A DNA stretch of 64,000 bases from Candidatus Omnitrophota bacterium (GCA_026416665.1 JAOAET010000041.1:10425-74424); one strand, 5' to 3'. Counted from the first letter of the stretch, positions 16,664 to 58,641 are shown. Numbers and translations: made by a program. Notes: generated from the sequence alone by a model not told the origin.

Positions 16664-16671
16664 AGCAAAAA

Positions 16672-20293: not shown

Positions 20294-22303
20294 ATGGAAA
20301 ATACTACTTTACAAACTTATGGTAGTAAGTTTGTTTCTCAGCTTCTAACCACAATTCGGCTTATTTCCATTTATCCTGCCAAACATCCTCTTATTGTTAA
20401 CGCCTTGAAAACACTGATGAGCTACTTGGAATCTTTACTTACTACAGAAGACGTTCTAGAATTGGCTATTTCTCCAGATAACAGGGTTATTCTTAATCAA
20501 TTTGTTATTCAAGAAAAAGGTCAAGGTACAGTTAATGATTTTATTTCTCTATTTAAGAAACTAGAAGTAGAAAGTCTTATTTTTTCGCGGGGTCTAACCG
20601 TAGAAGAAATGGACAACTTTGTTAAATTTTTTATTAGTGATAAAGAAAAACTTAAATCCAAGCAAAACCTAAATACATTTTTCGAGGCACAGGGAATAAA
20701 GCATATCAAAGCCCGGCAGTATGAGTATCTGAAAATAGAAAAAGGTAAAGAGGCGACCCTTTTGGAAGGTAAGCTGAAAGACGTAGAGTTATTGAAGAAA
20801 AAAATAAAAGATTTTAGCCAAAAAAAGATATCAGAACCTGCTGATATACAAACTATTCAGGAAGGCGTTTTTAATCTAGTAAAAGAGGAATTCAAGCAAG
20901 AAGGAAAAATAAACAGTTCTATAAAAATACTTTTAAAAAAATTTATATTACATTCTTCAGACCATAATAATGTTCTAGAAAAATTGCGCCAAGCACTTAT
21001 TGATTTTGGTTGCCCCCCAGAACAAGTAGATAGTTTGATTAGCAGGATAAGGGAGGAAATTTCTCAGCCCCAGCAGTCTCGTGCGCGAATAACTAAAGAG
21101 GATTTGGAACTGTTACAGAGACAGAATAACCAGTTGAAAGAACAGTTAACAACTCTTCGTCAGGAAATAGAAAGACACAGATGGGCGTTAGAAGAACTAA
21201 AAAAAGAAAATAGAAAAATTATTAGTGAAAAACAGCGTATTGATAACATTGTTCATAATATGGCAGAGGGAATGGTGGTAGTTGACGCAGAGGGAAAAAT
21301 TATTTTGGTAAATCCTGCTGCCGAGCAGCTTTTAGGAATTACTAAAGAAGATATTGGTAAGCCCATACGCCAGGTAATTAAAGACGAACATCTATTGACC
21401 TTGACTAAGCAAATTACTGCCGATGCAGAAGGGATAGTAGAGAAAGACATTGAGTTGGTTTCAGCAGATGAATCTACCAAGCGGGTTCTACGAACTAGCT
21501 CTGCAGTAGTTGAAGATAATGAGGGACGAACTGTGGGTATGGTTACGATGCTAAATGATATTACTCGTCAGAAAGAAATTGAGAATCTAAAAAGTCAGTT
21601 TGTAGCAAGCGTTTCCCATGAGTTACGTACACCTTTAGTGGCTATTGAGAAGTCTATTAGTTTAATGTTAAGCAAAGCCGCAGGAGAAATTAACGAAACC
21701 CAGAGTCAATTCCTTAATATAGCAGAACGTAATCTTAAGCGCCTGACCGCGTTGATTAATGACCTTTTAGATTTGTCTAAACTTGAAGCAGGGAAAATGG
21801 TCCTAAAACGAAGACCTGTCTCGCTTGCTTCGCTTATTCAGGATGCCATAGAAAGTATGTTGAATTGGGCCGGGAGTAAATCTATTGCTCTAAAAAAAGA
21901 AATTGCGCAGGATTTGCCACTTATTGAACTTGACCCGGATCGGATTATTCAGGTTTTAAACAATCTTATTGGTAATGCTATTAAATATACTCCATCTGGA
22001 GGTCAGATTACTGTTAAAGCCAGATTTGTCAGTCAAGAGCACTGTGTGGAAGTAGAAGTAGAGGATACAGGTATTGGGATTCCTGAGGAGGATTTAGATA
22101 AGGTATTTGAAAAGTTTTACCAGGCAAAAGGACATGAGCAAACTGAGATTAAAGGCACAGGGATAGGTCTTGCAATAGTTAAAGAGATAGTCACCCTTCA
22201 TGGAGGAAAAGTATGGGTAGAAAGTCAGTTGGGTAAAGGGTCACGTTTCTTTTTTACTATTCCGCAGACAGGGGAGGAAGATAATGACAGACAACCAAAT
22301 TAA
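20294..22303 (+). CDS. PAS-domain sensor histidine kinase with long coiled-coil/HAMP-less N-terminal region
   Basis: PAS (VVDAEGKIILVNPAAEQLLG), H-box SHELRTPL, HATPase_c N/G boxes (NLIGNAIKYT, GTGIGLAIV). 669 aa. Confidence 0.8.
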   Translation: MENTTLQTYGSKFVSQLLTTIRLISIYPAKHPLIVNALKTLMSYLESLLTTEDVLELAISPDNRVILNQFVIQEKGQGTVNDFISLFKKLEVESLIFSRGLTVEEMDNFVKFFISDKEKLKSKQNLNTFFEAQGIKHIKARQYEYLKIEKGKEATLLEGKLKDVELLKKKIKDFSQKKISEPADIQTIQEGVFNLVKEEFKQEGKINSSIKILLKKFILHSSDHNNVLEKLRQALIDFGCPPEQVDSLISRIREEISQPQQSRARITKEDLELLQRQNNQLKEQLTTLRQEIERHRWALEELKKENRKIISEKQRIDNIVHNMAEGMVVVDAEGKIILVNPAAEQLLGITKEDIGKPIRQVIKDEHLLTLTKQITADAEGIVEKDIELVSADESTKRVLRTSSAVVEDNEGRTVGMVTMLNDITRQKEIENLKSQFVASVSHELRTPLVAIEKSISLMLSKAAGEINETQSQFLNIAERNLKRLTALINDLLDLSKLEAGKMVLKRRPVSLASLIQDAIESMLNWAGSKSIALKKEIAQDLPLIELDPDRIIQVLNNLIGNAIKYTPSGGQITVKARFVSQEHCVEVEVEDTGIGIPEEDLDKVFEKFYQAKGHEQTEIKGTGIGLAIVKEIVTLHGGKVWVESQLGKGSRFFFTIPQTGEEDNDRQPN

Positions 22304-22673
22304 GGTTTTAGTAACCGATGACGAAAAGGATTTTCGGGATCTTTTGGCATTTTGGTTAAAATCTAAAGGGTATGATGTAATCACAGCTAGTAACGGTATT
22401 GAGGCAGTAGAGAAGATTAAACAAGAATCTCCGGATGTTGTCTTTTTAGATTTAAATATGCCGGATAAGTACGGAACTGATACACTTAAAGAAATCAAAT
22501 CCTTTAATAAAGATTTACCCGTAATAATCATTAGCGCCCATGTAGACGACCGTAGAGCAAAGGAGGCAATGGATTTAGGTGTTGCTGGTGTATTTTATAA
22601 GGGCAGTGACTTTCAGCAAGGGCTTACTCTTTTAGAAGCAGCTCTCCATACCCATAAAAAGCTTAAGAAATAG
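22284..22673 (+). CDS. single-domain response regulator
   Basis: VLVTDDEKDFRD ... VFLDLNMPDKYG receiver motifs. Overlaps the kinase stop by 20 nt (translational coupling). GGGGAGG RBS. Confidence 0.8.
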   Translation: MTDNQIKVLVTDDEKDFRDLLAFWLKSKGYDVITASNGIEAVEKIKQESPDVVFLDLNMPDKYGTDTLKEIKSFNKDLPVIIISAHVDDRRAKEAMDLGVAGVFYKGSDFQQGLTLLEAALHTHKKLKK

Positions 22674-22698: not shown

Positions 22699-22725
22699 CC
22701 GCAAGGTACCCTTGCGGTTTTTTTA
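22699..22725 (+). terminator. Rho-independent terminator
   Basis: CCGCAAGG-TAC-CCTTGCGG perfect 8-bp stem followed by TTTTTTTT. Confidence 0.65.
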
Positions 22726-22736
22726 TAAAAGATTTA

Positions 22737-22766
22737 TTGACAATTTAAAAAATTTTAGGATATAAT
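22737..22766 (+). promoter_or_regulatory. sigma70-like promoter (TTGACA-N18-TATAAT) for the secretin module A
   Basis: Consensus -35 at 22737..22742 and consensus -10 at 22761..22766, immediately after the terminator and 66 nt before the MerR-like gene. Confidence 0.55.
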
Positions 22767-24102: not shown

Positions 24103-24105
24103 AAG

Positions 24106-26474: not shown

Positions 26475-26488
26475 CCAAAGAGCTCTTT

Positions 26489-29400: not shown

Positions 29401-30016
29401 TATATCCCAGGAATTAAAAAAGGTTCAGGAAGATACCAAACGAATAGAAAAAGTAAAGATTCCGCAGGAATTAGAGCGTTGTGTAAGTGAATTAAATTCT
29501 CTTAAGAGAGAGCTTGCTAATAAAGATGCTGAGTATCTTAAGAAGATAAAAGAATATGAACAGAAGTATAAAGAAACCAGTAGTACAGATAAGAATAAAC
29601 AAAGTCTTATTAAGGAACTTGCGCAGTTAAAAACCAAGTATGAGGAATTAGAAAGAAGATACCAGATGTCTGAGAAGATTCGTAAAGATTTAGAGGCAAT
29701 TAAAGAGCGTTATGGTAAATTACCCGAAGAGAATGCCAATCTTCACTATAATTTAGGGGTTTTATACGCAGAAAAGAAAGATTACGATAAGGCAATAACA
29801 GAATTTAAAAAGGTTATTGAGCTTAAACCTCGTGATGCAGAGGCGCATTATAATCTTGGAGTAATTATTGGTGAGTATTTAGGTAACCGCAAAGAAGCAC
29901 TACCATATCTTGAAAAATTTCTAGAATTAGCACCGCAGGACCCCGAAGCAGATAAGATTCGCAAATATATTGTTACCTGGAAAACTTTTAGTGAGGGACA
30001 AGATGACCAGCGCTAA
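26489..30016 (+). CDS. giant (1175 aa) membrane-anchored coiled-coil protein with C-terminal TPR domain
   Basis: N-terminal TM, about 1000 aa of Q/E/K/L heptad sequence, and a C-terminal TPR (HYNLGVLYAEKKDYDKAITEFKKVIELKPRDAEAHYNLG). Confidence 0.7.
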   Translation: MRKIIFNKKIVEEALLISIIGLVIAGLNEPTFAKERSKSKTETQLREVDILRKELLKAQEALANLKSLYADKEIQVKQLSLKLTKLEEDFRQAQETVIRLRRDKEELSQLQTKLSLQLKSLETEKAILKKQNELLSTCNEENKAKTKELTVLRANCAKQNQDFLNKQQELEATIAAYENKNQQLIQQKAELELKYASCSQALTERKNFEISCLAQKESLLKELQDVRRQRDMLQKDLASAQAQTAEVSNLYERLKQQQQMEEELGQLRRNVAQLQNELKISQEQNKKLSEIASKYNKQADLADQLYQLRKQLSICEAQRIQLEKQQQQPDVQISRLRSEIAQLEKQKLMLEETCNKAKKQHDELGRKLSEMSKKLQLLQNENKMLKESVLASDKQTLLKELELLRRDLEKSQEEKKKIEDSARQNKQETQKAQQQLEVLRNKLTALKTCEENIEKQRQQLADCQERVNQIELLKKELESLRTKNQHLQQQVQQCTATNQQGNTSLNKELEKANKELELLRHTNQQLEKKAQEIFTLRQKESDEKTKEIALLKKEMEDLRNINNKLQQRIQQADEEVKEKKKCAEEINLLKRELKQVNDKNRQLSKKIEGCQAGSQQQLVECNKRVEYLNKELEQLRSVNKKLQQKSEEVLTTPKDSAQENKEYIQLKEKYRQLEQERNRLQEEIKQLQKQQADLVTQYEARLKKEPMLSKSSTDSSETVAILKQELTKAQELSYQLVKEKADCQKRYEELSEQLNKALLVKEAQEKEKQDIERKNKELEEQYKNLSLQLSRLMIQYGELGQQNQQLTNANANCRSEIVSVQNKLQQAEQLVSSLQLEVERMKKENNDLNVKFFNEKLQREQDVALVQAQCNQQIALKEGEYVQLSKKFEDFRNQKQVQVTALENELASVKKELADAQNLSFQMVQEKGSLSGQLKKLTEQLQATENQNTLLIQQKTELEKQNAFLKEQYISISQELKKVQEDTKRIEKVKIPQELERCVSELNSLKRELANKDAEYLKKIKEYEQKYKETSSTDKNKQSLIKELAQLKTKYEELERRYQMSEKIRKDLEAIKERYGKLPEENANLHYNLGVLYAEKKDYDKAITEFKKVIELKPRDAEAHYNLGVIIGEYLGNRKEALPYLEKFLELAPQDPEADKIRKYIVTWKTFSEGQDDQR

Positions 30017-30233
30017 ATATATAACTGCAAAAGAAATTGCTCAGAAATATGCCCTTTCTTATCAAAGTATAAACCGCTATTCTGACGCAGGTCTTTTACC
30101 AGTTGCTTTCAAAAAAGGAAATATTCGTTATTTTGAACGTTCAGTAGTAATTAAACGAATGAAAACTATCTTAGAAATGAGTAAGGATGGGTACTCTTTG
30201 TTGTTGATACGCAAAAAAATTTTGGGTATTTAA
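30003..30233 (+). CDS. MerR-superfamily HTH-only small DNA-binding protein (module B paralog)
   Basis: MTSAKYITAKEIAQKYALSYQSINRYSDAGLLP...GNIRYFERSV...GYSLLLIRKKILGI. The start was chosen at the internal ATG 30003. Overlaps the stop of the 1175 aa gene. Confidence 0.6.
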   Translation: MTSAKYITAKEIAQKYALSYQSINRYSDAGLLPVAFKKGNIRYFERSVVIKRMKTILEMSKDGYSLLLIRKKILGI

Positions 30234-30234
30234 T

Positions 30235-31977
30235 ATGCGTTTTTGTGGAATAGTTTATTTAATTATCTGGGGCATTTTCATTACGGCTAAATGTGGTTTA
30301 GCTCAGCAAAGCGGTTTTCGTGATTTGGATTTTCCTCAGAAACGTATTTCTTTGGACCTAAAGGATATGGATATTATCGAAGCATTAAAATATATTGCCA
30401 CAAAAGCCCAGATGGATATTATCCCCACCAAAGAGGTTTCAGGTAGAGTTTCTCTTACGGTTCAGGATGTCCCTGTTAAAGATGTTTTTGAGATTATCTT
30501 ACGCAGCAACAATCTTGTTTACGAAAAACGGGGTTCTATCTACAATGTAATGACTGAAAATGAATATAAGAATCGTTTTGGGAGAAGTTTTTATGATAAT
30601 AGAATTTTTAAAGTAATTCAGCTACAATACGCCTCTCCTGAACAGGCATTGACTCTTTTAAATTCAATGAAAAGTGATGTTGGCAAGGTGCTTATTGACC
30701 CTGATTCTGGAATTATACTTATTCTTGATACCCCTGAAAGGGTAGCAAATATGGAGGCTACTTTAAGGGCAATGGATCAGAAAAGTATAATAAGAGTTTT
30801 TAATTTAAAGTATGCCCGTGCCAAAGATATGGAAGAAAAGCTTAAAACACAACTTGACCTTAAAAAAGTTGGTTCAGTAAAAGCTGATGAGCGAACAAAT
30901 CAATTGATTGTTCAGACGTTACCACAGAGAATGGAAGAAATAGCCAAGTTAATTGAAAGCCTTGACCAGAAGACACGACAGATTCTTATTGATGCCAAAA
31001 TAATTCAGGTGCAGTTAAATGATGCAACAAGCTCAGCGGTAGAGTGGGAAGGTCTTTTTCAGCTTAGTAAAAAGCACGGCATGACTTATTTAGGGTCATA
31101 CCCTTTTAGTTCAGTTCAGGCATCCACAGACAGTTGGCGTTCACGTAAAGATACACTTACAGAGGTAGGATACGTAGGGTCTTTTCCTTTTTCTGGCACA
31201 ACCTCAAATTACTCTGCAGGCAGGCAAAGTGTGGGGATTCAAGAAATGCATTTAGGAGTTATTGGCAAAAATGATTTTGATGTTATAATAAAGTATCTGC
31301 AGTCATTGGGACAGACCCGTATTCTTTCTAATCCTAAGTTAGCAGTGGTAAACAACCAAGAGGCAAGAATTCATGTTGGCGAGCGACAAGCTTATATTAC
31401 TACTACCACCACTCAGACGCAGACTTCTACTACTGTATCTGAAGCAGTAACGTATGTAGACGTGGGGATTCAGTTAGCAGTAACTCCCACTATCAATGAG
31501 GATGGATTTGTTACTGTAAAGATAAAGCCTGAGATTTCTAGTGTGGTTAGTTATCTTGAGACTTCCAGTAATAACAAAATACCTATAATTGATACTTCTA
31601 CTGCAGAAACTATTGTAATGGTAAAAGACGGAACAAGTATCTTAATAGGAGGTCTTAGTAAACAGGAAAAGGTAAATACCTCTGAAGGTGTACCCTTGTT
31701 GCAGAAGGTTCCTGTTTTAGGAAAGATATTTTCCAATAAGGTTGATAAAACAAAACGCTCGGAACTAATGGTATTGTTGACTCCGCATGTAGTAGAAGGC
31801 GATGAGTTAGTTACTGGTTCTCAGAGTGACTTCGGTTATAAATTAGATAAAGAATATCAAAAATACCCTGAGTTCTTAGATGAACCAGTAGAATTGGAAC
31901 CGAAACCTTATCAAACGTATCCACCACTTAGAGGTGAGCAAAGTTTACCAACTTTAAAACCTGAGCGTAGTTTTTAG
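30235..31977 (+). CDS. secretin (PilQ/GspD/MshL-like), module B paralog
   Basis: The same architecture as 24639..26474 with collinear similarity throughout (e.g. NPKLAVVNNQEARIHVG, LIGGLSK, VPLLQKVPVLGKIF, ELMVLLTPHVV). Confidence 0.8.
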   Translation: MRFCGIVYLIIWGIFITAKCGLAQQSGFRDLDFPQKRISLDLKDMDIIEALKYIATKAQMDIIPTKEVSGRVSLTVQDVPVKDVFEIILRSNNLVYEKRGSIYNVMTENEYKNRFGRSFYDNRIFKVIQLQYASPEQALTLLNSMKSDVGKVLIDPDSGIILILDTPERVANMEATLRAMDQKSIIRVFNLKYARAKDMEEKLKTQLDLKKVGSVKADERTNQLIVQTLPQRMEEIAKLIESLDQKTRQILIDAKIIQVQLNDATSSAVEWEGLFQLSKKHGMTYLGSYPFSSVQASTDSWRSRKDTLTEVGYVGSFPFSGTTSNYSAGRQSVGIQEMHLGVIGKNDFDVIIKYLQSLGQTRILSNPKLAVVNNQEARIHVGERQAYITTTTTQTQTSTTVSEAVTYVDVGIQLAVTPTINEDGFVTVKIKPEISSVVSYLETSSNNKIPIIDTSTAETIVMVKDGTSILIGGLSKQEKVNTSEGVPLLQKVPVLGKIFSNKVDKTKRSELMVLLTPHVVEGDELVTGSQSDFGYKLDKEYQKYPEFLDEPVELEPKPYQTYPPLRGEQSLPTLKPERSF

Positions 31978-31985
31978 GAGAGAAA

Positions 31986-32930
31986 ATGATAAGATTATTT
32001 AAAATAAGTTTAATAGCTGTTATACTCAGTCATATAATAGATATCTCTTCTGTCTTTGCGCAAGCAACATTACAAGAAGAGTTCAATAAGTTAAAGAAGC
32101 AGTATGAATTGGTGGTCGCCGACAGAGATAATATTTTAGCCCAGACAAAGGGATTACTTGAATATAAAAATCGTTATAAGGAATTAGAAACAGAGTATGA
32201 CAAACTAAAAAAAGAAAATGACCAACTGAAAATAGACCTTCAATTAGCTAAAGAACAAATTACTAATCTCCAGCAGCTGCAAGGTGAATGGGAGATAACT
32301 AAAGGTCAGCTTGAACGAGAAAATAAAGAGTTAAAGGCATCTTTAGAAAAGGTTACTGTGGAATACAAGATGCTTCCGGAATTACGTAAGGAGTTAAATT
32401 CAATTAAAAATGAAAACACAGCACTTAGACGTTCTATGCAGTCACTTGAAGCAAAGGTAAAACAGCTAAATCAACAAAAACTTAATGACGATGCACAGCT
32501 TGAGATATACCGTATCCAAATAAAAGATTTAAAGAAACGTTATGAACAGGCACTGGCAAAAAATAGAGAATTAGAAAAACGAGCACAAAACCTACCTAAA
32601 CGTTTTGCAGAGTTGGCTCGTGAGAACAAAATGCTTATTAAAGAGACAGCACTAATGCATTATAATTTAGGTGTCTTTTATACAAAGAATAAGGAATTTT
32701 CACGGGCAATAGCGGAGTTTGAAAAAGCAGCAGAGCTTAATCCTGAAGACCCAGCAGTTTATTATAATCTTGGTTATATCTATGCAGAATACCTAGTAAA
32801 TAGGCCTAAGGCAATTGAATACTTTAAAAAGTATCTAGGTGTAGCCAAACCAGGGGATAAGGATATGGACTGGGTTAAGAAATATATTGTAACATGGGAA
32901 ACGTGGGAGGGTAAAAAACCAATGAAATAA
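31986..32930 (+). CDS. coiled-coil protein with C-terminal TPR domain (short paralog of the 1175 aa protein)
   Basis: Signal/TM, about 200 aa of coiled coil. The C-terminus MHYNLGVFYTKNKEFSRAIAEFEKAAELNPEDPAVYYNLGYIYAEY...KKYIVTWE is collinear with the C-terminus of 26489..30016. Confidence 0.65.
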   Translation: MIRLFKISLIAVILSHIIDISSVFAQATLQEEFNKLKKQYELVVADRDNILAQTKGLLEYKNRYKELETEYDKLKKENDQLKIDLQLAKEQITNLQQLQGEWEITKGQLERENKELKASLEKVTVEYKMLPELRKELNSIKNENTALRRSMQSLEAKVKQLNQQKLNDDAQLEIYRIQIKDLKKRYEQALAKNRELEKRAQNLPKRFAELARENKMLIKETALMHYNLGVFYTKNKEFSRAIAEFEKAAELNPEDPAVYYNLGYIYAEYLVNRPKAIEYFKKYLGVAKPGDKDMDWVKKYIVTWETWEGKKPMK

Positions 32931-32945
32931 GAAGGAGGGGCGAGA

Positions 32946-33530
32946 ATGAAGAGAGCGATAGTTTTTACCGCAGTTTTTAGTCTTCTACTGTTAGTTGTAA
33001 ATGAGGTACTTGCTTGGTCTATATTTGGAAAGAAGAAAGAAACTTCACCAACAACCACACAACAAGATACTGCCAAATCCACACCAACTCCTGCAGTCGC
33101 TTCACCTCAGAAGACACCTGAGGAGTTGAAACGCGAAGAGGCACTTAAAGTACGTAAAGCACAGGCACAACGTAAATTAGCGGAGCTTAATAATACTGAA
33201 TGGCAGATTGAGTTAACTCCTCTTTATAGTAAAGGAAAGAAAGAAACAGATACAGTAGTTTTCAAAGAAAATAAAGTTTCTTTGGTTAACTTTAGTAAGA
33301 AAGGATTTGGTCCTACTAATTTTACTTTAACCGTTCAAGAAGATGGAATGGTAGTTTGGGAGACAATGCAGACCTCTGAAAAAGGGCAATTAGTATTTTG
33401 GCGAGGTGAGATGGATACAGATTTAAAGCAAATGCGGGGAGTAGCCAGCTATCAAATAGACCAGAACAACAAACAGGATTATTCTTTCATAAGTATATCA
33501 AAGAAGAATCTACCTATTACGGATAAGTAA
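32946..33530 (+). CDS. secreted protein with Thr/Pro-rich linker, unknown function
   Basis: Signal peptide, a low-complexity TSPTTTQQDTAKSTPTPAVASPQKTP linker, and a globular C-terminus. Located immediately upstream of the ExeA-like ATPase. Confidence 0.45.
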   Translation: MKRAIVFTAVFSLLLLVVNEVLAWSIFGKKKETSPTTTQQDTAKSTPTPAVASPQKTPEELKREEALKVRKAQAQRKLAELNNTEWQIELTPLYSKGKKETDTVVFKENKVSLVNFSKKGFGPTNFTLTVQEDGMVVWETMQTSEKGQLVFWRGEMDTDLKQMRGVASYQIDQNNKQDYSFISISKKNLPITDK

Positions 33531-33531
33531 T

Positions 33532-34440
33532 ATGTATGAGGCCTACTGGGGGCTAACAGAAAAACCATTTGAAAATACCCCTGACCCACGTTTTTTCTAC
33601 TACTCACAACAACATAAAGAGGCAATTGCCCGCATGCTCTATGTGGTGCGTGAGCATAAAGGGGCAGCTCTTTTTACAGGAGAATATGGTTGCGGGAAAA
33701 CACTTCTTTCACGTATCTTATGGCAGGAATTACAACAGGAGAATCGCTACCAACCTGTATTTATCTTAAATCCCCGCCTGTCGGGTGTAGAGTTTATTCA
33801 AGAAATTGTCCATCAGTTAGGAGGTGCTTTTGAATCTCAGGCAAAGATTGATTTATTTCATTGTCTACATAAGATACTCTACGCCAACCATAACGCAAAT
33901 AAACACAGTGTTATTATTATTGATGAGGCACAGGCAATTAAAGATAAAGATACTTTCGAAGAGATAAGATTGCTTTTAAATTTCCAGTTGGATAATGCCT
34001 TTCTTTTAACCATTATCCTGTTGGGACAACCAGAGTTAAAATTTACTGTAATGAGTCTTCCACAATTTATGCAAAGAATGGCGGTTCGTTTTCATTTGAA
34101 GGCCTTTAATGAAATAGAGACCAGACAATATATTGAACATCGCTTAGCAGTCTGTGGAGTGAAACGACAACTGTTTGCGGACGAGGCATATAAAGAGATA
34201 TATGTTGTTACCGGTGGCATACCCCGTCGTATTAATACCATATGTGATTTGGCTTTGTTAGTTGGTTTTGGTTTAGGTTTGACTATTATAGACCACCAAA
34301 CCATCATAAAAATTAATCAGGACTTAGAATCACCTGATTTTAACGGTTCACTTCAACAACCTCTACAGACCGCTAGTGATAATTCTACAAATAACGGAGC
34401 AAGTCAGATTGATTCCTTAAAAGTCAAACCACAGACATAG
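33532..34440 (+). CDS. ExeA/GspA/MshM-like AAA+ ATPase
   Basis: N-terminal YWGLTEKPFENTPDPRFFYYSQQHKEA...LFTGEYGCGKTLLSR (ExeA signature plus Walker A) and a Walker B IIIIDEAQ. Confidence 0.75.
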   Translation: MYEAYWGLTEKPFENTPDPRFFYYSQQHKEAIARMLYVVREHKGAALFTGEYGCGKTLLSRILWQELQQENRYQPVFILNPRLSGVEFIQEIVHQLGGAFESQAKIDLFHCLHKILYANHNANKHSVIIIDEAQAIKDKDTFEEIRLLLNFQLDNAFLLTIILLGQPELKFTVMSLPQFMQRMAVRFHLKAFNEIETRQYIEHRLAVCGVKRQLFADEAYKEIYVVTGGIPRRINTICDLALLVGFGLGLTIIDHQTIIKINQDLESPDFNGSLQQPLQTASDNSTNNGASQIDSLKVKPQT

Positions 34441-34463
34441 AATAATAGCAATAATTAATAAAG

Positions 34464-35564
34464 ATGTTAAGTATTCTAAATGTATTGAAAAAATATTATG
34501 AAGAGAAGAAGAAGACAGCTGAAGGTGTATCTTCTAATTCTGAAAAAGAGCGTTCAGATGTAACTTCAATAGTACAGAATTTAGAACTTCCTTCCTTGGC
34601 AGACTGCGGTGCTACAAGAGAATCAATAAGTATTTTTACTGTGGTAAACAGACAGTCAGAGGAAGAGAAGGCTCAGAAAGCAAGAGAATTTTATTTTAAT
34701 CTTGTAAATTGGCTAAGAAAGATTTATACAACAGAATTCCAAGCGAATGCACAATTTAAAGAAGAGTGTTTTAGTTTTATTGATGAGCAGTTAACGTATC
34801 TTAACACTGCCGTTGAGGAATTGATTCATCAAGCAAATAGTGACTATCCTGTTGATGAGACCTGGCTTGCTTCTCATGCAGCAGCAGTAAGTGTGATTGC
34901 TTTAGAGATAGCCAAGGGGTTAGAATATAATAGGCAGAAGCTTATGGAACTGGCAGCTTGTGTATTCTTTCATGATATTGGAATGCTTAAGATTTTGGAC
35001 ATTGTCCAGAAACAATCACAATTAAGCAAAGAAGAGTTGGCGCAGATAAGACAACATCCTATTATGGGGACAAGTCTTTTAGGGACGATGAATCTTGGAC
35101 TATTTAGTTGTATAGGTGAGGTTATATTACAAGAGCATGAGCGGATAGATGGTAGTGGGTATCCTCAAGGTTTAAAGCAAGATACAATTAATGAATATGC
35201 AAAGATATTGGGCCTTGCGGATATTTACGAAGCACTTACTCATAATCGCCCTTATCGTAGAAGAATTACACCACCTAAGGCAATAAACTTGATTCTAAAT
35301 AACAAACATCTGTTTGATGCGAAAGTTTTGAAAAAACTTTTAGAACGCATAGGGGTCTTTCCAGCAGGGAGTCTGGTGCGTCTAAATACAAAAGAAATTG
35401 GGGTGGTCACGAAGATTAACCATCAGCTTCCACTTAGGCCCACAGTGTTAGTTTTATTTGAAGAGAAAGGAACAAGACTTTCGGCACCAAAAGAACTTGA
35501 CCTCTCAAAAAATTTTTTACTTTGTATTGAGGAGTGTATTGAGGAAAATGTAACAGTATCTTAA
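34464..35564 (+). CDS. HD-GYP domain protein (c-di-GMP phosphodiesterase family)
   Basis: HDIGMLKI and HERIDGSGYPQGL motifs in the C-terminal half. The N-terminal half has no recognisable domain. Confidence 0.75.
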   Translation: MLSILNVLKKYYEEKKKTAEGVSSNSEKERSDVTSIVQNLELPSLADCGATRESISIFTVVNRQSEEEKAQKAREFYFNLVNWLRKIYTTEFQANAQFKEECFSFIDEQLTYLNTAVEELIHQANSDYPVDETWLASHAAAVSVIALEIAKGLEYNRQKLMELAACVFFHDIGMLKILDIVQKQSQLSKEELAQIRQHPIMGTSLLGTMNLGLFSCIGEVILQEHERIDGSGYPQGLKQDTINEYAKILGLADIYEALTHNRPYRRRITPPKAINLILNNKHLFDAKVLKKLLERIGVFPAGSLVRLNTKEIGVVTKINHQLPLRPTVLVLFEEKGTRLSAPKELDLSKNFLLCIEECIEENVTVS

Positions 35565-35573
35565 AATAAATCT

Positions 35574-37346
35574 ATGTGGCAGAGCAAGGGCTTATTTACA
35601 ATTGGCATTGTGGGATTTGGATTAGTTGCGCTAACCACTTTTGTTGCTACAGAATTATCACGGCAAAAGGAAATTCAAATTCAGCTTAACCAGCTTCTTT
35701 CAGATGCCTATAAAGAAAAAGAGTCACTTTCTGGAACAATAGAACAGCTAAAAGAAGACCTTAACCAGAAGCAACAACTACTATCTAAACTCTCGGATGT
35801 GCAGGCGATCCATCAGGCATTGATTACTGCACAACAAAATGTAGAGATGTTAACCGCAGAAGTAAATAGACTTAATAAGGAACGTTCTAACTTACAGGCA
35901 GAAAATGTTAGTTTAAATACACGCTTTCAAAATACTACTAAAGAATATATGAAAGTGTTAGCAGAACTGAAAGCCGTAAAAGAAGAATTGAATCGTGTTA
36001 ATCAGCAGGCTGCCCCTGAACGTAAAAAGCTTGAACAGGTAAATAAGCTTTTAGAAGAAAAAACACAAGAATTCCTGAAACAGCAAAAGGAGTTGGAGGC
36101 AATAAAAGCACAACTAAAGAATGTAAACGACAATAATAAAAATCTTCAAAATAAAGTGGTAAGCCTTGAGCAAGAAAGACAAAAACTTCTTTCACAGGTT
36201 AAATCTTTAGAAACACAATTAAATAGTCGTGTTCCGTCTTCGCGAAATTGGGAGCAGACAATATCCGAGTTAAAAAGAACCTTAGCTGAGCGTGATAAGG
36301 AAATTACACAGCTTCAAGAACGCCTACAGCAGGTGCAGGAACAATCCACAAAGGCTATCCAAACGAGTTCCTTAACAGATAGACAAAAACAGATGCCACA
36401 ATTAAAGGATGAGAGACTTCAACGCCAAATAGATGAACTTCACAAGATAAATACACAGCTTAAAGAAGAAGTCACACGTCTCTCAGATGAATTGGCCCAG
36501 GAGCGTCAAAAGGTTAATCGGTTGGCACGTAGTTCACAGATAGTTTCGCCCGATATTAAGAAAATAGAAACTATGCAGGAAGAAATGAAGCGTCTGTCTG
36601 ATATTCTTATGCGAAAAGAGTTTGAGATAGATGAAGCTAAAAAAGAAACCTTAAGCTATAAAGAGAAACTTATTGAGATGCAAGAAAAGTTAAATCGTTT
36701 AGAGGCTTATGCAAACTCCACACGAGTAGCCAAAGATCAGTTGTTGGAATTACAGAATCAGAAGGCTCTATTAGAGTCGCGTCTTGCTGAAGCACAGGCA
36801 CAGCTTGCTAAGAAAAATGAGCTAATTGAGTCTTTACAAAAGAACATTGACTTCTTGAATCAAGATATAGCAAAAAAAGATGAACAAATACGTAAGATAG
36901 AAAATGAACTTTCTTTCTTAAGCAGAAAATCTAAGGAGGAATTGGAACAGGAAAAAGCACGGTCTACTGAAATTAATTTATTGTATTCCAGTCTTAAAGC
37001 ACAGCTTGCCCAGTATGCTGACGCCCTAAAACTTAAAGATGCACAGAGTGAACAAGACCGCAAACAGATTGCCAAACTACAGGAAGAGATTTTACAAGTT
37101 CGGCAAAAGGCTGAGAGATTAGAAACGGAGTTAGCTGAAGCGCGTGAACGACAACGGAAAGCTATGGATGATTTGTCTGCAGCAGTTCGGCTCAATGCAG
37201 TTTTACAGGAAAGACTTTTTGGTACATCCGAAAAATCTAACATCTCTTATAACCTTACAGATACCTTAGAATCAGAAAGCCAACGGCTCAAGGCAGAGGA
37301 GATGCGTAAGAAAATAGAAGTTATTCTTGAGCCAAAGAAGAATTAA
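35574..37346 (+). CDS. membrane-anchored coiled-coil protein (590 aa)
   Basis: N-terminal TM (LFTIGIVGFGLVALTTFVA), then continuous heptad-rich sequence. Confidence 0.55.
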   Translation: MWQSKGLFTIGIVGFGLVALTTFVATELSRQKEIQIQLNQLLSDAYKEKESLSGTIEQLKEDLNQKQQLLSKLSDVQAIHQALITAQQNVEMLTAEVNRLNKERSNLQAENVSLNTRFQNTTKEYMKVLAELKAVKEELNRVNQQAAPERKKLEQVNKLLEEKTQEFLKQQKELEAIKAQLKNVNDNNKNLQNKVVSLEQERQKLLSQVKSLETQLNSRVPSSRNWEQTISELKRTLAERDKEITQLQERLQQVQEQSTKAIQTSSLTDRQKQMPQLKDERLQRQIDELHKINTQLKEEVTRLSDELAQERQKVNRLARSSQIVSPDIKKIETMQEEMKRLSDILMRKEFEIDEAKKETLSYKEKLIEMQEKLNRLEAYANSTRVAKDQLLELQNQKALLESRLAEAQAQLAKKNELIESLQKNIDFLNQDIAKKDEQIRKIENELSFLSRKSKEELEQEKARSTEINLLYSSLKAQLAQYADALKLKDAQSEQDRKQIAKLQEEILQVRQKAERLETELAEARERQRKAMDDLSAAVRLNAVLQERLFGTSEKSNISYNLTDTLESESQRLKAEEMRKKIEVILEPKKN

Positions 37347-37349
37347 AGA

Positions 37350-38225
37350 ATGAGAATTATTTTGCGTATTTTTATAGTTGTTATCAACGTTTTTTGGTTT
37401 TCTTTACTTTTAGCTGGTGATGACGATATTGAAAAAGCCCGACAATATTATGAATTAGGGAACATTCTCTATCAAGAAGGCAAATATGACCAGGCACAAC
37501 AACAGTATCAGAAGGCATTGGAGTTGTTACAGAAAAAGCAATCTTCTTCTTTGACTTCAACACCTTCTTCAATACCTTTACCATCTCCAACTCAGCAGAG
37601 CCAGTTACCAGAAGTTCCTAAAAGAAAAGAGGAGCCACGCCTTATAACCGAGTACAGAATAGGTGATGAGGATATCCTGAAAATTTCTGTTTGGCAGAAT
37701 GATGACTTAAACCAAGAAGTTATTGTTCGTCCTGATGGTAAGATTTCTTTTCCACTTATTGGTGATGTCCCTGCACGCGGTTTAACTATTCCTGAGTTAG
37801 ATGAAGAGATTACCCACCGACTTTCAGAATATGTACGTTCACCAGAAGTTTCTATTTCACTGGTTAAGATGGGTGGGTCTCGGGTTATTATTTTAGGGCA
37901 GGTACACAGACCTGGTGTTTATAATGTATCAGGGGCAAAGACAATTTTAGAAGCAATTGGTTTAGCCGGTGGTTTTACTAATGATGCGGTACCTTCCAGT
38001 ACCATTCTTATTAGAGGTGGGTTTATTGACCCTAAACCACAACGGATTAATTTAAGTAAAGCCCTCAAAGGAAAAAACGCCGAGGCGTTTAGAATTTCGT
38101 TACAACCTGAAGATATAATCTATGTTCCAAAGAAGTTTATCGCCGATATTAATTACGTCCTTTCCCTTATTGTCGACCCTATTGCCAAAGGTACTTATAT
38201 TAAAGATACCTATGAAAAATGGTAA
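37350..38225 (+). CDS. polysaccharide export protein, Wza/KpsD family (Poly_export + SLBB)
   Basis: YRIGDEDILKISVWQNDDLNQEVIVRPDGKISFPLIGDV (Poly_export) and GQVHRPGVYNV...ILEAIGLAGGFT (SLBB) motifs. The N-terminus has a TPR-like helix pair and an S/T/P-rich linker. Confidence 0.75.
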   Translation: MRIILRIFIVVINVFWFSLLLAGDDDIEKARQYYELGNILYQEGKYDQAQQQYQKALELLQKKQSSSLTSTPSSIPLPSPTQQSQLPEVPKRKEEPRLITEYRIGDEDILKISVWQNDDLNQEVIVRPDGKISFPLIGDVPARGLTIPELDEEITHRLSEYVRSPEVSISLVKMGGSRVIILGQVHRPGVYNVSGAKTILEAIGLAGGFTNDAVPSSTILIRGGFIDPKPQRINLSKALKGKNAEAFRISLQPEDIIYVPKKFIADINYVLSLIVDPIAKGTYIKDTYEKW

Positions 38226-38372
38226 AGTGGTAATGGGGCCAGAATTATTTCTGTCTTAAGTTTAATTTCTTTTTAAAACCAACATCTAATTCCAGAGACA
38301 GTAACATTTAAGATTAAATTTTTGATTACATATATATCTTTTTTTAATAAAAACTATGGTAAAATAAATTAT

Positions 38373-38660
38373 ATGGATACACTCTACGAAAAAAATCCTG
38401 ACGTTATTTTTAGAAAAATTGCTGGTGAATATCTGCTTATGCCCATAAAACAAAAGGCAGTAGATTTAAGAAGTATCTATACCTTAAACGAAACAGCTTC
38501 CTGTATCTGGCAACTTCTTGATGGTAAAACAACTATTGGTGATATACAAAAAGCACTTTGTGAGCAATTTGATATTACTTCAGAGCAAGCACTTTGGGAT
38601 ATTCAAGAATTTGTTAGTCAACTGGAGGCGTTAGGTTTTATTCATAGAATAAGCCGATAG
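38373..38660 (+). CDS. PqqD-like protein (RiPP recognition element, RRE)
   Basis: About 95 aa. NETASCIWQLLDGKTTIGDIQKALCEQFDITSEQALWDIQEFVSQLEALGFI is the PqqD/RRE pattern. The start was chosen at the internal ATG 38373. Confidence 0.6.
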   Translation: MDTLYEKNPDVIFRKIAGEYLLMPIKQKAVDLRSIYTLNETASCIWQLLDGKTTIGDIQKALCEQFDITSEQALWDIQEFVSQLEALGFIHRISR

Positions 38661-38661
38661 T

Positions 38662-40419
38662 ATGAAGCAGGTGCTTTTATGTATTCCGCCTGACTACGAC
38701 CATGAATATCCTGCCTTAGGAACAGCGGTTCTTCAGGCGTATCTTAAGAAACACAAGGTTTCTTGTTTACAAATCGACTTAAATCTTGCTTATCGAAAAT
38801 TTCTTGCCCAGCATGTCTGGGCAGAAACAGAGCTTACTTTAGAGGAACAAATTTTTTTCCTACCTTGGCTTATAAAGAAATTCTTTCGCAACTGTCTTAA
38901 AGGTCGTTATTACGAAGATTGTCTTGCCCGCCAATCAGATGGAATCTTTCCAGAGTTGCCTTATGGTAACAACACCAACAGTTCCTTCTTTTTCTGTGAG
39001 CATTTACTTTCTTCAGAATATCTATTTAGATATCTTGAAGATGAAGAAGAAAATACCTTTTGGCAGTTTTTTACACAAAGTGGCATCTTAGATATAATTC
39101 AACAAGAAGACATAAAACTAGTAGGAATCTCTATTATTTCTCCTTCACAGGCAATTGCTTCATTGACATTAGCTTTACTGATTAAGAAGAGATTTCCCCA
39201 AGTGCATGTAAATATCGGTGGACAGTGGCCTACGCTTTACAGACGTCAAATTTTAGAACATAGACAGTTATTTAGATGTTTTGATAGTGTAATCGTCTTT
39301 GAGGGAGAAGTTGCTTTACTAGAATTAGCAAGAAGAGTTTGCGCAAACAAAGAAATTACAGGTATTGCTAATGTTATTACCAAAGATACAAAACTAAATG
39401 AGCACTTTAGAATTGCTGAGATAGATATGCGTAGACTGCCACCACCTGATTTTGAAGGCCTTCTCCTAGGAGAATACGACGGTGCAAGGGATGGCCAGAT
39501 TAGTTTAACTTTTGAGAGTTCTCGAGGTTGTTACTGGGGGCGTTGTGCCTATTGTGTAGATTTACCTTTACCTAAACCCAGTTATCGTATAAAATCAGCA
39601 CAATTAGTAGTAAGAGATATGTGTTATTTAAAGGATAAATTTGGAGCAAGCTTTTTACTATTGAGTGACCCTGGACTTTCTTGTCGTCAGATGGTAGAGA
39701 TTTCGGAAGAGATTATTCGGCAGGGAGTAAAAATTAATTGGTGGACAATGGCACGGCTTGATCCTGGATTTAAGAAAGAACATTTTGAACTTGCCCATAA
39801 AGCAGGCCTTTGCCAGATAAATTTTGGTTTTGAAACAGCATCTGAACGTCTAAGTAAACTTTTAGACAAGGGGAACCTAAGAGAACGTAGTTCTCGCATT
39901 ATCCGAGACTGTGCCTTAAGTGGTATAAAGGTGGATTTGCAGACAATGCTGGGGTTACCGCAGGAAACTTATGAAGAGGCTCTAGAAACAATAGATTTCT
40001 TGCTAGAACACAAAGAGTTTATCAGCCATGTTACCTTTAATATCTATTACCTTACACCTGAGAATTATGTGTATTATAACCCTTACAGGTATGGTATAAG
40101 TTATGACAAAGAAAAAGTTTTGCCTTTTTCTTTCTTTATTCCTTTTCAAAATTTATATGGGATAGATATGGAGAAAGCAGCACAGATAGAAAAAATTTAT
40201 TATGCCTTGGTAGAAAAAGAAAAAATAACAAGCAAAGCCAAAGAAGAAATTGGGAAAATAGACTTATTTAGTTCTACTGAAACAGAAAACAGCCAGCTTT
40301 TAAAAGAGGTGTTTATAACTTTGTTAGATCAAACAGTAAGTATTAAATATTACTATGATGAAAAGACTGATACCTGTACTTTTTTAGAAGAAGAGGATGT
40401 CTTTTCGCAAAGAAGGTAA
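38662..40419 (+). CDS. B12-binding-domain radical SAM enzyme
   Basis: N-terminal cobalamin-binding-like Rossmann segment, then SSRGCYWGRCAYC (Cx4Cx2C radical SAM cluster motif). 585 aa. Confidence 0.75.
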   Translation: MKQVLLCIPPDYDHEYPALGTAVLQAYLKKHKVSCLQIDLNLAYRKFLAQHVWAETELTLEEQIFFLPWLIKKFFRNCLKGRYYEDCLARQSDGIFPELPYGNNTNSSFFFCEHLLSSEYLFRYLEDEEENTFWQFFTQSGILDIIQQEDIKLVGISIISPSQAIASLTLALLIKKRFPQVHVNIGGQWPTLYRRQILEHRQLFRCFDSVIVFEGEVALLELARRVCANKEITGIANVITKDTKLNEHFRIAEIDMRRLPPPDFEGLLLGEYDGARDGQISLTFESSRGCYWGRCAYCVDLPLPKPSYRIKSAQLVVRDMCYLKDKFGASFLLLSDPGLSCRQMVEISEEIIRQGVKINWWTMARLDPGFKKEHFELAHKAGLCQINFGFETASERLSKLLDKGNLRERSSRIIRDCALSGIKVDLQTMLGLPQETYEEALETIDFLLEHKEFISHVTFNIYYLTPENYVYYNPYRYGISYDKEKVLPFSFFIPFQNLYGIDMEKAAQIEKIYYALVEKEKITSKAKEEIGKIDLFSSTETENSQLLKEVFITLLDQTVSIKYYYDEKTDTCTFLEEEDVFSQRR

Positions 40420-41872
40420 TCTTATAAAAATGAGAGCATTTCCTGTATCAATGATGGAAGACCACGACCAGGCCTATTTTTTCTGGAAGAAGCAAGGTCT
40501 AAAAGGATTTACTCTTTTACATATTGATGCACATCTTGACTTTGGTTGGTTGCCAGAACTTGACTGGCAACAATTGCCCACTATTTCTTTTTCACAATTA
40601 CCTGCTTTGCAATCACAACTGTTGCTTAATCCTTTTATTACTTCAAAAGAAAAACTACTTAATATTGGTAATTTTATTTGCTCTGCTATTAGAGATGGTA
40701 TTGTTAGACGGTTGTTTTGGATTGTTCCTGAGCCAACATTAAATTGTCTGCGCGGAAATTATTTCTTGCAGAAGCAGATAAAACAAATCTTACGGCTAAA
40801 AAAAACCGATACAGGTAGCTTTTTGATAAAGCAAAGAAGTATTAATTTCCGCTTGGCAGGAGTTGAGGTTACTGTTTGTGGTTTAAGTGACTTCTGTTAC
40901 GTAGAAGAGCCAGTGCTTCTGGATATAGATGTAGATTTTTTGGTTACTGGCTATATCTGGAATGACGTTGATCCTTGTCGTATTCCTTGGATATACCCTG
41001 ACCAGTTATATGAGTTGGTAAGTAAGAAAATTTCTCAAATTGAGGCCTTAACTATAGCCTATTCAGTGGAAGGAGGCTTTACCCCTCTAAAATTCAAATT
41101 CCTTGGTGATTACCTGCGACTTTACTTTACAGAGGACTTTAGCAAAGAAGATGAAGACAGTTTAGAGAGAAGAAAAGAGGCAATATATTTAGAAGAACAG
41201 AAGCAATACGACAAAGCAGAAGCCATTTATGAGGAACTTTTAAAAATTAACCCAAAAGATGCCTCAATTTATTTTGCTCTTTATTTGTTGAACTTAAACA
41301 GTCACATAGCCGATATTACAAAAGCGAGAAATTATTTCTACAGGGCTATTCAAATTGACCCGACATATTCCACAGAATATAATAATTACGGCATTCTCTA
41401 TGCACGCAATGGCCGTTATAGCCAGGCAAAAAAGTATTACCAAAGGTTCTTAGAGATGTGTCCGACTAATGCTTCTTGCTGGGAAGGATTAGGTTTTATT
41501 GCTTTAAGAGAAAGAGATTACACAGCCTCTCTGAGATTTTTTAAAAAGTCCTTAGAATATGATTCACAAAGATTAGCTAGTCAATTGGGTGTAGCAATTA
41601 TTCATTTTTATCAAGGGGTTTTAGATAAGGCAGAAGAGATGCTTTTTTCGTTAAAAGAGAAGTTAACTGATAATTTTGAAATCTATTGGTGGCTGGCACG
41701 CATTGCCCATAAAAAAGGGCTTAATAAACAGGCAATTAATTACTACAAGAAGGCAGTTTTAACTGGTGGTGAAGGAGTAGCTGTTCACTGGTATCTGGCA
41801 AGTTTGTATTTAAAAGAAAAAAATTTTTTCAGAGTAACAGAAGAATTAAGCCGTATTATTCAACAGATTTAA
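40397..41872 (+). CDS. TPR-repeat protein with N-terminal UPF0489/arginase-like domain
   Basis: N-terminal FTLLHIDAHLDFGW (DAHxD-like metal-site motif). The C-terminal half has at least 5 TPR repeats. The start may instead be the ATG at 40430. Confidence 0.5.
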   Translation: MSFRKEGNLIKMRAFPVSMMEDHDQAYFFWKKQGLKGFTLLHIDAHLDFGWLPELDWQQLPTISFSQLPALQSQLLLNPFITSKEKLLNIGNFICSAIRDGIVRRLFWIVPEPTLNCLRGNYFLQKQIKQILRLKKTDTGSFLIKQRSINFRLAGVEVTVCGLSDFCYVEEPVLLDIDVDFLVTGYIWNDVDPCRIPWIYPDQLYELVSKKISQIEALTIAYSVEGGFTPLKFKFLGDYLRLYFTEDFSKEDEDSLERRKEAIYLEEQKQYDKAEAIYEELLKINPKDASIYFALYLLNLNSHIADITKARNYFYRAIQIDPTYSTEYNNYGILYARNGRYSQAKKYYQRFLEMCPTNASCWEGLGFIALRERDYTASLRFFKKSLEYDSQRLASQLGVAIIHFYQGVLDKAEEMLFSLKEKLTDNFEIYWWLARIAHKKGLNKQAINYYKKAVLTGGEGVAVHWYLASLYLKEKNFFRVTEELSRIIQQI

Positions 41873-41875
41873 GAT

Positions 41876-42154
41876 ATGTTTTTACAGAATAAACTAAAGA
41901 GGTGTTTTCAAAAAAACGAAGATATTATTGAAGAAGAAAAAGACAGGATAATTACTCTTTTTGACCCGTATCGTAGAGTAGCAATTAGATTAAGTCCTAC
42001 TGGATATAGGATTTGGCAGTTAATAGATGGTCGCCGTCAAGTATCCGATATTATTGAAGAATTGAAAAAAGATTTTGAGGTCAATGAAAAAACCATCTGT
42101 AGAGATGTTATATGTTTTCTGGATAAGTTAGCTAAAAGAGAGATAATCAAATAA
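41876..42154 (+). CDS. PqqD-like protein (second discrete RRE)
   Basis: 92 aa. RLSPTGYRIWQLIDGRRQVSDIIEELKKDFEVNEKTICRDVICFLDKLAKREII is the PqqD pattern. Confidence 0.55.
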   Translation: MFLQNKLKRCFQKNEDIIEEEKDRIITLFDPYRRVAIRLSPTGYRIWQLIDGRRQVSDIIEELKKDFEVNEKTICRDVICFLDKLAKREIIK

Positions 42155-43275: not shown

Positions 43276-43390
43276 ACTTTCTATTGATGATACTTTATTA
43301 TCTGCCTGTCGTAAGACAGCAACTTCACGGGTCAATCCTAAACGGGGAACTTCTTGCCGTGCCTGCAGAACAACCTATCGTTCTTCATAA
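43232..43390 (+). CDS. candidate RiPP precursor peptide (52 aa, not in the supplied ORF track): MEKKPYQKPTMQEVKLSIDDTLLSACRKTATSRVNPKRGTSCRACRTTYRSS
   Basis: ATG at 43232 with an AAAGGAGGG RBS 6 nt upstream. It overlaps the last 44 nt of the rSAM-SPASM gene in another frame. The leader has a lasso-type YxxPxL element (YQKPTM). The core is Cys/Thr/Ser/Arg-rich with 3 Cys. Confidence 0.45.
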   Translation: MEKKPYQKPTMQEVKLSIDDTLLSACRKTATSRVNPKRGTSCRACRTTYRSS

Positions 43391-43408
43391 AACAGTTACC
43401 TCCTTATA

Positions 43409-47241: not shown

Positions 47242-47242
47242 T

Positions 47243-56033: not shown

Positions 56034-56058
56034 ATTTTTTTAGAACATCTTTGGCAGT

Positions 56059-58636: not shown

Positions 58637-58641
58637 AAAGT

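Follow-up and report, generated by a model that had tools for sequence, protein, structure and literature searches.

In a 64,000-nucleotide stretch of Candidatus Omnitrophota bacterium (GCA_026416665.1 JAOAET010000041.1:10425-74424), hereafter the window, four consecutive genes at 33532-38225 follow a block encoding two secretins and specify an ATPase of the ExeA/GspA superfamily, a stand-alone HD-GYP protein, a membrane-anchored coiled-coil protein and an outer-membrane polysaccharide export (OPX) protein. Judged from its sequence relationships, the ATPase is not mainly a helper of the secretins and belongs with the HD-GYP protein. With moderate confidence, we read the locus as one surface operon centred on cyclic di-GMP (c-di-GMP), which joins an outer-membrane module of the mannose-sensitive haemagglutinin (MSHA) pilus/type II secretion system (T2SS) type to a module for exopolysaccharide-export control and OPX function, the ATPase and HD-GYP protein acting as a cytoplasmic control or assembly unit. 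All results are based on sequence, synteny and predicted structures in uncultivated organisms, and the taxon labels of the metagenome-assembled genomes are those of the deposited records, unverified and possibly wrong. The four genes announced by the original prediction are all present on the + strand:

33532-34440, + strand: cytoplasmic P-loop ATPase of the ExeA/GspA superfamily, 302 amino acids, with an AAA_22 match (PF13401, 72 bits)
34464-35564, + strand: stand-alone HD-GYP protein, 366 amino acids (HD_5/HD-GYP, 98 bits)
35574-37346, + strand: membrane-anchored coiled-coil protein, 590 amino acids, with one N-terminal hydrophobic segment and coiled-coil family matches that are only sub-threshold
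37350-38225, + strand: predicted class-3 OPX protein, 291 amino acids, with a signal/anchor helix, one TPR hairpin, a disordered linker, Poly_export and SLBB domains and a conserved tail of ~30 residues

The ATPase had been thought to be present because of the secretins, an explanation contradicted by its distribution. We collected 80 genome loci around its homologues (47-85% identity), with visible flanks of 10 kb and an annotation by BLAST against the window proteins in which divergent coiled-coil proteins and genes for OPX proteins and polysaccharide co-polymerases (PCP) can be missed. About 75 of these loci were assessable for the pair, and in 60 the ATPase gene is directly followed by the HD-GYP gene, mostly with gaps of -47 to +25 nt; a secretin was found in only 8 of the ATPase-anchored loci. 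The pair occurs in 36 of the 39 loci labelled Omnitrophota and also under the labels Neomarinimicrobiota, Fidelibacterota, Latescibacterota, Brocadiaceae/Planctomycetota, Nitrospinota and Thermodesulfobacteriota. In three Omnitrophota loci (L011, L016 and L024), the 10 kb preceding the ATPase hold housekeeping genes and lack a secretin, and in L015 a receiver gene that is otherwise the conserved upstream neighbour of the secretin module abuts the ATPase directly. In addition, P0305 and P0306 (608 amino acids) are natural AAA_22 and HD-GYP fusions in the same order as the window genes, with HDIGM, DVYEAL and the C-terminal beta domain present. By the Rosetta stone argument, the ATPase and the HD-GYP protein should therefore act together. 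We infer that they form one unit, that this unit responds to c-di-GMP and that it controls the assembly or activity of an envelope complex. No description of an HD-GYP protein paired with ExeA, GspA or MshM was found in the literature searched.

The sole contig recovered for a fusion (L163:5417-7243) is 7.3 kb long, carries a PFK gene upstream and is uninformative as to context. Tandem duplications of the pair were also seen (L037:10001-14433 and L026); in L037, two consecutive pairs precede genes for a receiver, a second ExeA-like paralogue that we call ATPpar, a coiled coil, a protein resembling GspC and a secretin.

A neighbour-joining tree places the window ATPase in a clade made only of HD-GYP-coupled proteins. 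A separate proteobacterial group contains an Aeromonas ExeA-like protein, the GspA of Ideonella (which has a GspB), the XrtA ATPase of Nitratidesulfovibrio vulgaris plasmid pDV1 and an ATPase from a Rhodobacterales exopolysaccharide locus. ATPpar-type proteins, the paralogue that heads secretin modules in relatives, form a third separate clade; ATPpar shares 34-35% identity with the window ATPase and has no copy in the window itself. The GspA of Escherichia coli K-12 was dropped as an ExeA reference, being marginally similar and too divergent to tell the paralogues apart.

The window ATPase has a Walker A motif at G50-x2-G53-x-G55-K56-T57 and a Walker B motif at D131-E132-x-Q134, and both GxxGxGKT and DEAQ are invariant among 26 homologues. 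With the ATPase of the ExeAB-ExeD and GspAB systems it shares the N-terminal AAA_22 domain and a PF..PDP.F.Y motif; in contrast to it, no transmembrane segment, N- or C-terminal, and no PG_binding domain were found in the protein, and family scans of its neighbours returned no match to a partner of the GspB/ExeB type. A factor for secretin multimerisation of the ExeA/MshM type, which may have replaced a lost paralogue in this lineage, is thus an unlikely role for it, despite several observations in its favour. The gene lies 1 nt past the last gene of the secretin module; window-type loci have lost ATPpar, and no fused cluster is left without an ExeA-like ATPase (the HD-GYP-coupled one in type A, ATPpar in type B, both in L095; types are described below); the protein is 36% identical to the Aeromonas ExeA-like protein vs 32% to the pDV1 XrtA ATPase; and the MSHA gene order is secretin, ExeA-like, TPR (PMC4624765). 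Against this role stand, besides the three missing ExeA features, a clade defined by HD-GYP coupling and mostly devoid of secretins, and the observation that deletion of mshM in Vibrio cholerae did not reduce pilus production (PMC4624765). One unlabelled metagenome contig (L169) has a SPOR (peptidoglycan-binding) protein gene between the HD-GYP and ATPase genes, an arrangement reminiscent of ExeA with its function divided between two genes.

The sole NCBIfam match of the window ATPase is TIGR03015, the XrtA/PEP-CTERM system-associated ATPase, with 221.5 bits vs a cutoff of 324.5. Loci of this system, as on pDV1, resemble the window in that a short ExeA-like ATPase stands beside a short OPX and a PCP/kinase in a Wzx/Wzy-type setting: the order on pDV1 is OPX, PCP, kinase, XrtA ATPase and TIGR03016 outer-membrane protein. 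A Pseudorhodobacter plasmid exopolysaccharide locus similarly has a short OPX and a TPR protein followed by an AAA ATPase, Wzz and a kinase. However, no exosortase family match was obtained for any scanned open reading frame of the window, PEP-CTERM-like tails and TIGR03016 are likewise missing, pDV1 has no HD-GYP partner, and the two ATPases fall in separate clades. Since the window ATPase resembles the XrtA ATPase no more than it does the Aeromonas ExeA-like protein, the TIGR03015 match merely reflects the lack of other curated models, and we rejected an assignment to the XrtA system.

The metal-binding set of the HD-GYP protein, which the original prediction singled out as a point to verify, is nearly complete in the comparison with PmGH (4mcw) and across 59 orthologues. 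H138, H170-D171, H198, H225 and D253 are retained, that is six of the seven ligands, together with the G-Y-P motif at 232-234; what is not kept is the first histidine of the HH pair, which is E224. Glu, which is likewise able to bind metal, occupies this position in 31 of 59 family sequences and His in 19. In HDxGK, the Lys is replaced by M174 in the window protein and by Met, Leu or Ile in the family, and DxxDAL is replaced by DxYEAL. The structural model (pLDDT 84.5, pTM 0.79) comprises an N-terminal helix, a disordered stretch at 21-61, the helical HD-GYP domain and a C-terminal domain of five beta strands. The best solved fold matches of the HD-GYP domain are c-di-GMP-bound DvhD (9rbz), PA4781, PmGH and Bd1817, with which the protein shares its fold, most metal ligands and the GYP motif. 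In contrast to these canonical proteins it has no receiver or sensor domain and adds both the N-terminal helix, conserved with the motif MxRISDILKK, and the C-terminal beta domain; its subtype is, moreover, obligately paired with or fused to the ExeA-like ATPase. Catalysis is plausible from the retained residues, and a role as sensor or 'trigger' is equally possible.

The third gene of the string also belongs to the ATPase/HD-GYP/OPX module, because the secretin-less loci L011 and L024 have an equivalent gene for a membrane-anchored coiled coil in the same place, between HD-GYP and OPX.

The fourth had been taken for a Wza-like exporter, so that two types of outer-membrane channel would be combined in one gene string; this claim has to be abandoned. 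The OPX protein matches Wza over residues 63-232 only (D1-D2), and neither a Wza_C match nor a Cys lipobox was found in it; unlike Wza, a class-1 OPX, it thus has no C-terminal amphipathic outer-membrane helix and no lipoprotein anchor. The structural model (pLDDT 82.5) closes with a helix of just 13 residues, and its best match among solved structures is 9n9a, the 'Class-3 OPX WzaB' of Myxococcus xanthus. Class-3 OPX proteins have the organization Poly_export-SLBB(n), carry no Wza_C or GfcC and cannot span the outer membrane (Saidi et al. 2022; bioRxiv 10.1101/2022.02.11.480155). The window protein is, by its domains and its model, a class-3 OPX and not a second outer-membrane channel. In Myxococcus, such proteins pair with a separate beta-barrel; of the 2017 class-3 proteins surveyed in that study, only 77 had a known barrel nearby (bioRxiv 10.1101/2022.02.11.480155). 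Compared with the Myxococcus translocons of class-3 OPX and 18-strand beta-barrel (WzaX/S/B and porins), the window OPX is of the same class, matches the fold of WzaB and also stands in a Wzx/Wzy context; it differs in having no PgaA/GfcD-like barrel nearby, an N-terminal TPR hairpin, which is typical of Omnitrophota, a conserved C-terminal tail and secretin neighbours. The tail reads VPKKFIAxLNYFLxQxLxPxxKGxY...W, with F263, I264, Y269, P277 and G281 invariant in 36 sequences, ends in Trp or Phe and is present with or without adjacent secretins. It might dock to TPR domains of the coiled-coil proteins encoded nearby. We rejected two candidates for an outer-membrane barrel: a stand-alone inverse-autotransporter barrel (48217-49098), with no counterpart in 84 ATPase-anchored loci, the only loci screened, and a 493-amino-acid protein at 60881, which is a multi-transmembrane protein.

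Upstream, the four genes continue a string of secretin-related genes:

22699-22717, + strand: intrinsic-terminator-like hairpin (8 bp stem with 6 GC, T7 tail), ending an upstream histidine kinase/receiver pair
22737-22766, + strand: promoter-like site TTGACA-18-TATAAT, a perfect sigma-70 consensus (12/12)
22832-23089, + strand: small MerR-type helix-turn-helix (HTH) protein, 85 amino acids, HTH only; first gene of the string
23086-24102, + strand: secreted protein of 338 amino acids with a weak peptidyl-prolyl isomerase/SurA-like match
24106-24642, + strand: bitopic GspC-like protein (weak T2SSC and GspC_delta matches)
24639-26474, + strand: secretin 1 (weak STN, two Secretin_N, Secretin)
26489-30016, + strand: secreted coiled-coil protein, 1175 amino acids, with C-terminal TPR
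30003-30233, + strand: second small MerR-type HTH protein; the listed reading frame starts at TTG 29970, and orthologues of 74-76 amino acids suggest ATG 30003
30235-31977, + strand: secretin 2 (STN, two Secretin_N, Secretin)
31986-32930, + strand: secreted coiled-coil and TPR protein, 314 amino acids, with weak PilW/Tgl-type TPR matches
32946-33530, + strand: p194, secreted, 194 amino acids, no family match

All intergenic distances from 22832 to 38225 lie between -47 and +23 nt, with 1 nt at the junction of p194 and the ATPase, and a sequence scan revealed no convincing terminator inside this region. Because a single terminator/promoter pair precedes the string and no gap exceeds 23 nt, we predict one operon running from 22.8 to at least 38.2 kb. 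The co-oriented gene string that had been proposed is borne out, and it is tightly packed. No Rfam family, and hence neither a c-di-GMP riboswitch nor another RNA leader, was detected in the window, and no tRNA either. Both secretins have clear Secretin and Secretin_N Pfam domains and score 240-252 bits vs a cutoff of 284 for PilQ and 224-246 vs 351 for GspD; each is followed by a coiled-coil/TPR protein. The two HTH-only proteins (75-85 amino acids) each precede a secretin sub-block, have no effector domain and keep 59-72% identity in relatives.

A secretin-anchored search recovered 77 metagenome loci, which fall into three types. Type A, to which the window belongs, has the order MerR, SurA-like, GspC-like, secretin 1, coiled-coil/TPR, MerR, secretin 2, coiled-coil/TPR, p194, ATPase, HD-GYP, coiled coil and OPX. 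Type B reads MerR, ATPpar, GspC-like, secretin 1, coiled coil, secretin 2, coiled-coil/TPR, p194, HD-GYP, coiled coil and OPX, the HD-GYP-coupled ATPase being missing. Type C consists of a histidine kinase/receiver pair in some cases, MerR, ATPpar, GspC-like, secretin, coiled-coil/TPR, p194, SurA-like and p194, with no HD-GYP or OPX gene within reach. ATPpar heads 28 of the 43 modules assessable for it, L095 carries both ATPases, and the slot of ATPpar in most relatives is occupied in the window by the 338-residue SurA-like protein; p194 comes and goes with the secretin module, and relatives often have several copies of it. Two type-C modules (L119:17211-21566 and L142:18633-21572) are followed by genes for very large secreted proteins (1452 and >980 amino acids) with similar N-termini and no Pfam match, which may be substrates.

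The downstream content could be scored in 28 loci with at least 6.5 kb past the last secretin: HD-GYP and OPX genes follow the secretins in 14 of them, in two arrangements, and neither is present in the other 14. HD-GYP, coiled coil and OPX thus recurrently travel with the secretin module, in line with what had been proposed. That the two modules are mere neighbours, unrelated systems placed side by side and read through with no shared function, is in our view very unlikely: although each occurs alone in many genomes, the junction is kept across ATPase identities of 64-85%, has been rebuilt in type B, is reversed in L037, where the secretins lie downstream of the pairs, and is bridged in the window by gaps of 1-23 nt. 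The junction joins two modules that are each of a known kind, and its presence in types A and B and in L037 means that it is not dismissible as mere adjacency. The gene string of the window recurs on dozens of independent contigs and is therefore not a product of chance.

The nature of the secretin block is indicated by two relatives. At L148:2309-14462, ATPpar, a GspC-like protein, a secretin and a coiled-coil/TPR protein are followed by T2SSE (MshEN with a C-terminal PilZ), T2SSF, a T2SSJ-like pseudopilin, a PilM-PilN fusion and T2SSM. L095 has an MshEN-bearing T2SSE gene that begins ~950 nt past OPX. By these sets, the secretin block is the outer-membrane portion of a system like MSHA/T2SS, with a motor ATPase that is itself of the c-di-GMP receptor type. 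Within the 64-kb window, MshE/G, pilins, PilMNO and GspE/F/G were not found. The nearest described arrangement is mshL-mshM-mshN, with which the window shares a secretin, a TPR protein and a short cytoplasmic ExeA-like ATPase, and after which the c-di-GMP-binding MshE comes in the MSHA operon. The window differs by having two secretins with long coiled-coil/TPR partners and an ATPase of the HD-GYP-coupled, not the module-heading, clade; the mshIJKLMNEGF/pilin set is not in the window, and the corresponding T2SSE (MshEN, PilZ), T2SSF, pseudopilin and PilMN genes of L148 stand next to the other paralogue. Unrelated conservation patterns, or a complete MSHA/T2SS set in orthologous loci that accounted for the ATPase, had been named in advance as evidence against a common apparatus: the conservation patterns are indeed separable, whereas the full set of L148 explains ATPpar and not the window ATPase.

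Downstream of OPX, the window encodes a radical-SAM cassette and then the components of a polysaccharide pathway:

38322-46455, + strand: radical-SAM/PqqD peptide-maturation-like cassette (PqqD, B12-radical SAM, arginase-like with TPR, PqqD, radical SAM/SPASM, HprK-related kinase B, S24-GNAT-NTP_transf_5)
46438-48073, - strand: ABC-2 exporter, after the radical-SAM cassette
48217-49098: IAT_beta inverse-autotransporter barrel, 293 amino acids, with no passenger domain, just upstream of Wzc
50073-52055, + strand: Wzc-type PCP/tyrosine kinase
52137-53516, + strand: Wzy_C polymerase
53506-55086, + strand: MOP flippase (Wzx)
55038-63306, + strand: polysaccharide biosynthesis genes (methyltransferase, GT2/GT4 glycosyltransferases, multi-transmembrane protein of 493 amino acids)

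Wzc, Wzy and Wzx of the window are the Wzx/Wzy pathway to which the OPX belongs. In L001 and L087, OPX is directly followed by Wzc and Wzy, so the radical-SAM cassette of the window is an insertion at this point. The ATPase/HD-GYP pair usually sits in surface-polysaccharide loci, with the order ATPase-HDGYP-OPX-Wzc-Wzy in L001, L015, L042, L048 and L084 and OPX-Wzc-ATPase-HDGYP-Wzy-Wzx in L027, L033 and L038. This context exists without secretins, for example in L015, L042, L048, L084, L027, L033 and L169, the last with the order glycosyltransferases, WbqC, PIG-L, DegT, WecA-like, HD-GYP, SPOR protein, AAA_22, OPX, Wzz, kinase and Wzy. At this locus (L169:9001-17963), the OPX is a 736-amino-acid FG-GAP and Poly_export protein. 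Genes similar to the PqqD/radical SAM/HprK-like/NTP_transf_5 cassette lie beside ATPase-HD-GYP-OPX in L011, L013, L016, L018, L024, L025, L029-31, L066, L069, L088, L103 and L147.

We propose that the genes at 33532-38225 encode a module that reaches from cytoplasm to periplasm and serves control and export in a Wzx/Wzy-type exopolysaccharide pathway. The HD-GYP protein would be the dedicated partner of the ATPase, probably a c-di-GMP phosphodiesterase or sensor, and the class-3 OPX would form a periplasmic ring on the PCP (Wzc) with no outer-membrane segment. Within one predicted operon, this Omnitrophota lineage would have linked the control and export module to the outer-membrane module of a type IV filament system resembling MSHA/T2SS, which is made up of the GspC-like protein, the two secretins and the coiled-coil/TPR pilotin-like proteins. 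The outcome would be a single c-di-GMP-linked surface programme in which a filament or secretion channel and polysaccharide export are made together.

Several observations weigh against this proposal. The OPX has no outer-membrane partner encoded with it: no homologue of the TIGR03016-type protein of pDV1 was found in the window or in any fetched comparison locus, and the single inverse-autotransporter barrel at 48217 has no counterpart in the ATPase-anchored loci. Two type-B loci (L107 and L108) have no Wzc or Wzy nearby and continue with PGI and sigma-factor-like genes; the HD-GYP/coiled coil/OPX trio can therefore travel with secretins and not with biosynthesis genes. In loci from outside the Omnitrophota, OPX and Wzc homologues often went undetected within 10 kb of the pair.

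Some of the same facts would fit a composite translocon, in which the secretins are the outer-membrane exit for the Wzx/Wzy polymer handed on by the class-3 OPX, the whole of 22.8-38.2 kb encodes a single machine connected by the GspC-like and coiled-coil/TPR proteins, and assembly or gating depends on the ATPase/HD-GYP unit under c-di-GMP control. A class-3 OPX has no membrane-spanning element and needs a separate outer-membrane pore; with no TIGR03016-like or other conserved barrel, the secretins are the sole outer-membrane channels of the operon; HD-GYP, coiled coil and OPX follow secretins in two arrangements, sometimes with no Wzc nearby; and the ExeA-like ATPase gene adjoins that of an outer-membrane protein on pDV1 as it adjoins the secretin block in the window. 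We nevertheless regard such a machine as possible but doubtful. Orthologous OPX proteins (49-53% identity, same tail) are encoded in loci with no secretin within 10 kb, half of the scored secretin modules are not followed by an OPX gene, the L148 module is contiguous with a full T2SS/MSHA-like set and thus has an ordinary role for its secretin, and no precedent was found for polysaccharide export through an OPX-secretin pair. The reading of two joined modules under a common c-di-GMP link is the one that we retain.

The window has a GC content of ~35% and is coded almost wholly on the + strand; its ATPase, HD-GYP and OPX proteins have identical NCBI entries from a Candidatus Omnitrophica metagenome-assembled genome. 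Directly upstream of the operon lie two signalling genes:

20294-22303, + strand: PAS histidine kinase, the first gene of the kinase and receiver region 20294..22673
22284-22673, + strand: single-domain receiver

Types A and C keep this pair just ahead of the cluster, L015 keeps it ahead of the ATPase, and the terminator and promoter described above set it apart from the cluster. Other genes upstream are ExbB/ExbD-like, signalling and housekeeping genes. They include two further c-di-GMP enzymes, a receiver-GGDEF protein and a PAS-GGDEF-HD-GYP protein (7724-8941 and 11942-13609), and, unrelated to the present finding, a pair classed as ExbB/ExbD-like on visual inspection of the translations and a cytochrome c of class III (c3/c7-type) with a Pfam match (16049-17091 and 19857-20198).

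Taken together, our results bring out a cassette in which an ExeA-family ATPase and a distinctive HD-GYP protein are encoded by two genes or, in some cases, by one fused gene; we found no description of it in the literature searched. The overall architecture, which the original prediction held to be new, was also not found described there: papers on Omnitrophota report Tad, type IVa pili and a T2SS-like locus near giant genes, and do not describe this cluster. The cassette, which sits in surface-polysaccharide loci of many uncultivated lineages, may be a new point at which c-di-GMP controls Wzx/Wzy-type export, and its recognition corrects an easy mis-annotation, that of a 'general secretion pathway protein A' beside secretins. 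Most OPX proteins are of class 3, and for most of these no outer-membrane partner is known; a lineage in which such an OPX is repeatedly wired into a secretin operon offers a concrete, testable candidate for one. Omnitrophota are ultra-small and probably host-dependent bacteria, and the cluster is likely part of their attachment apparatus.

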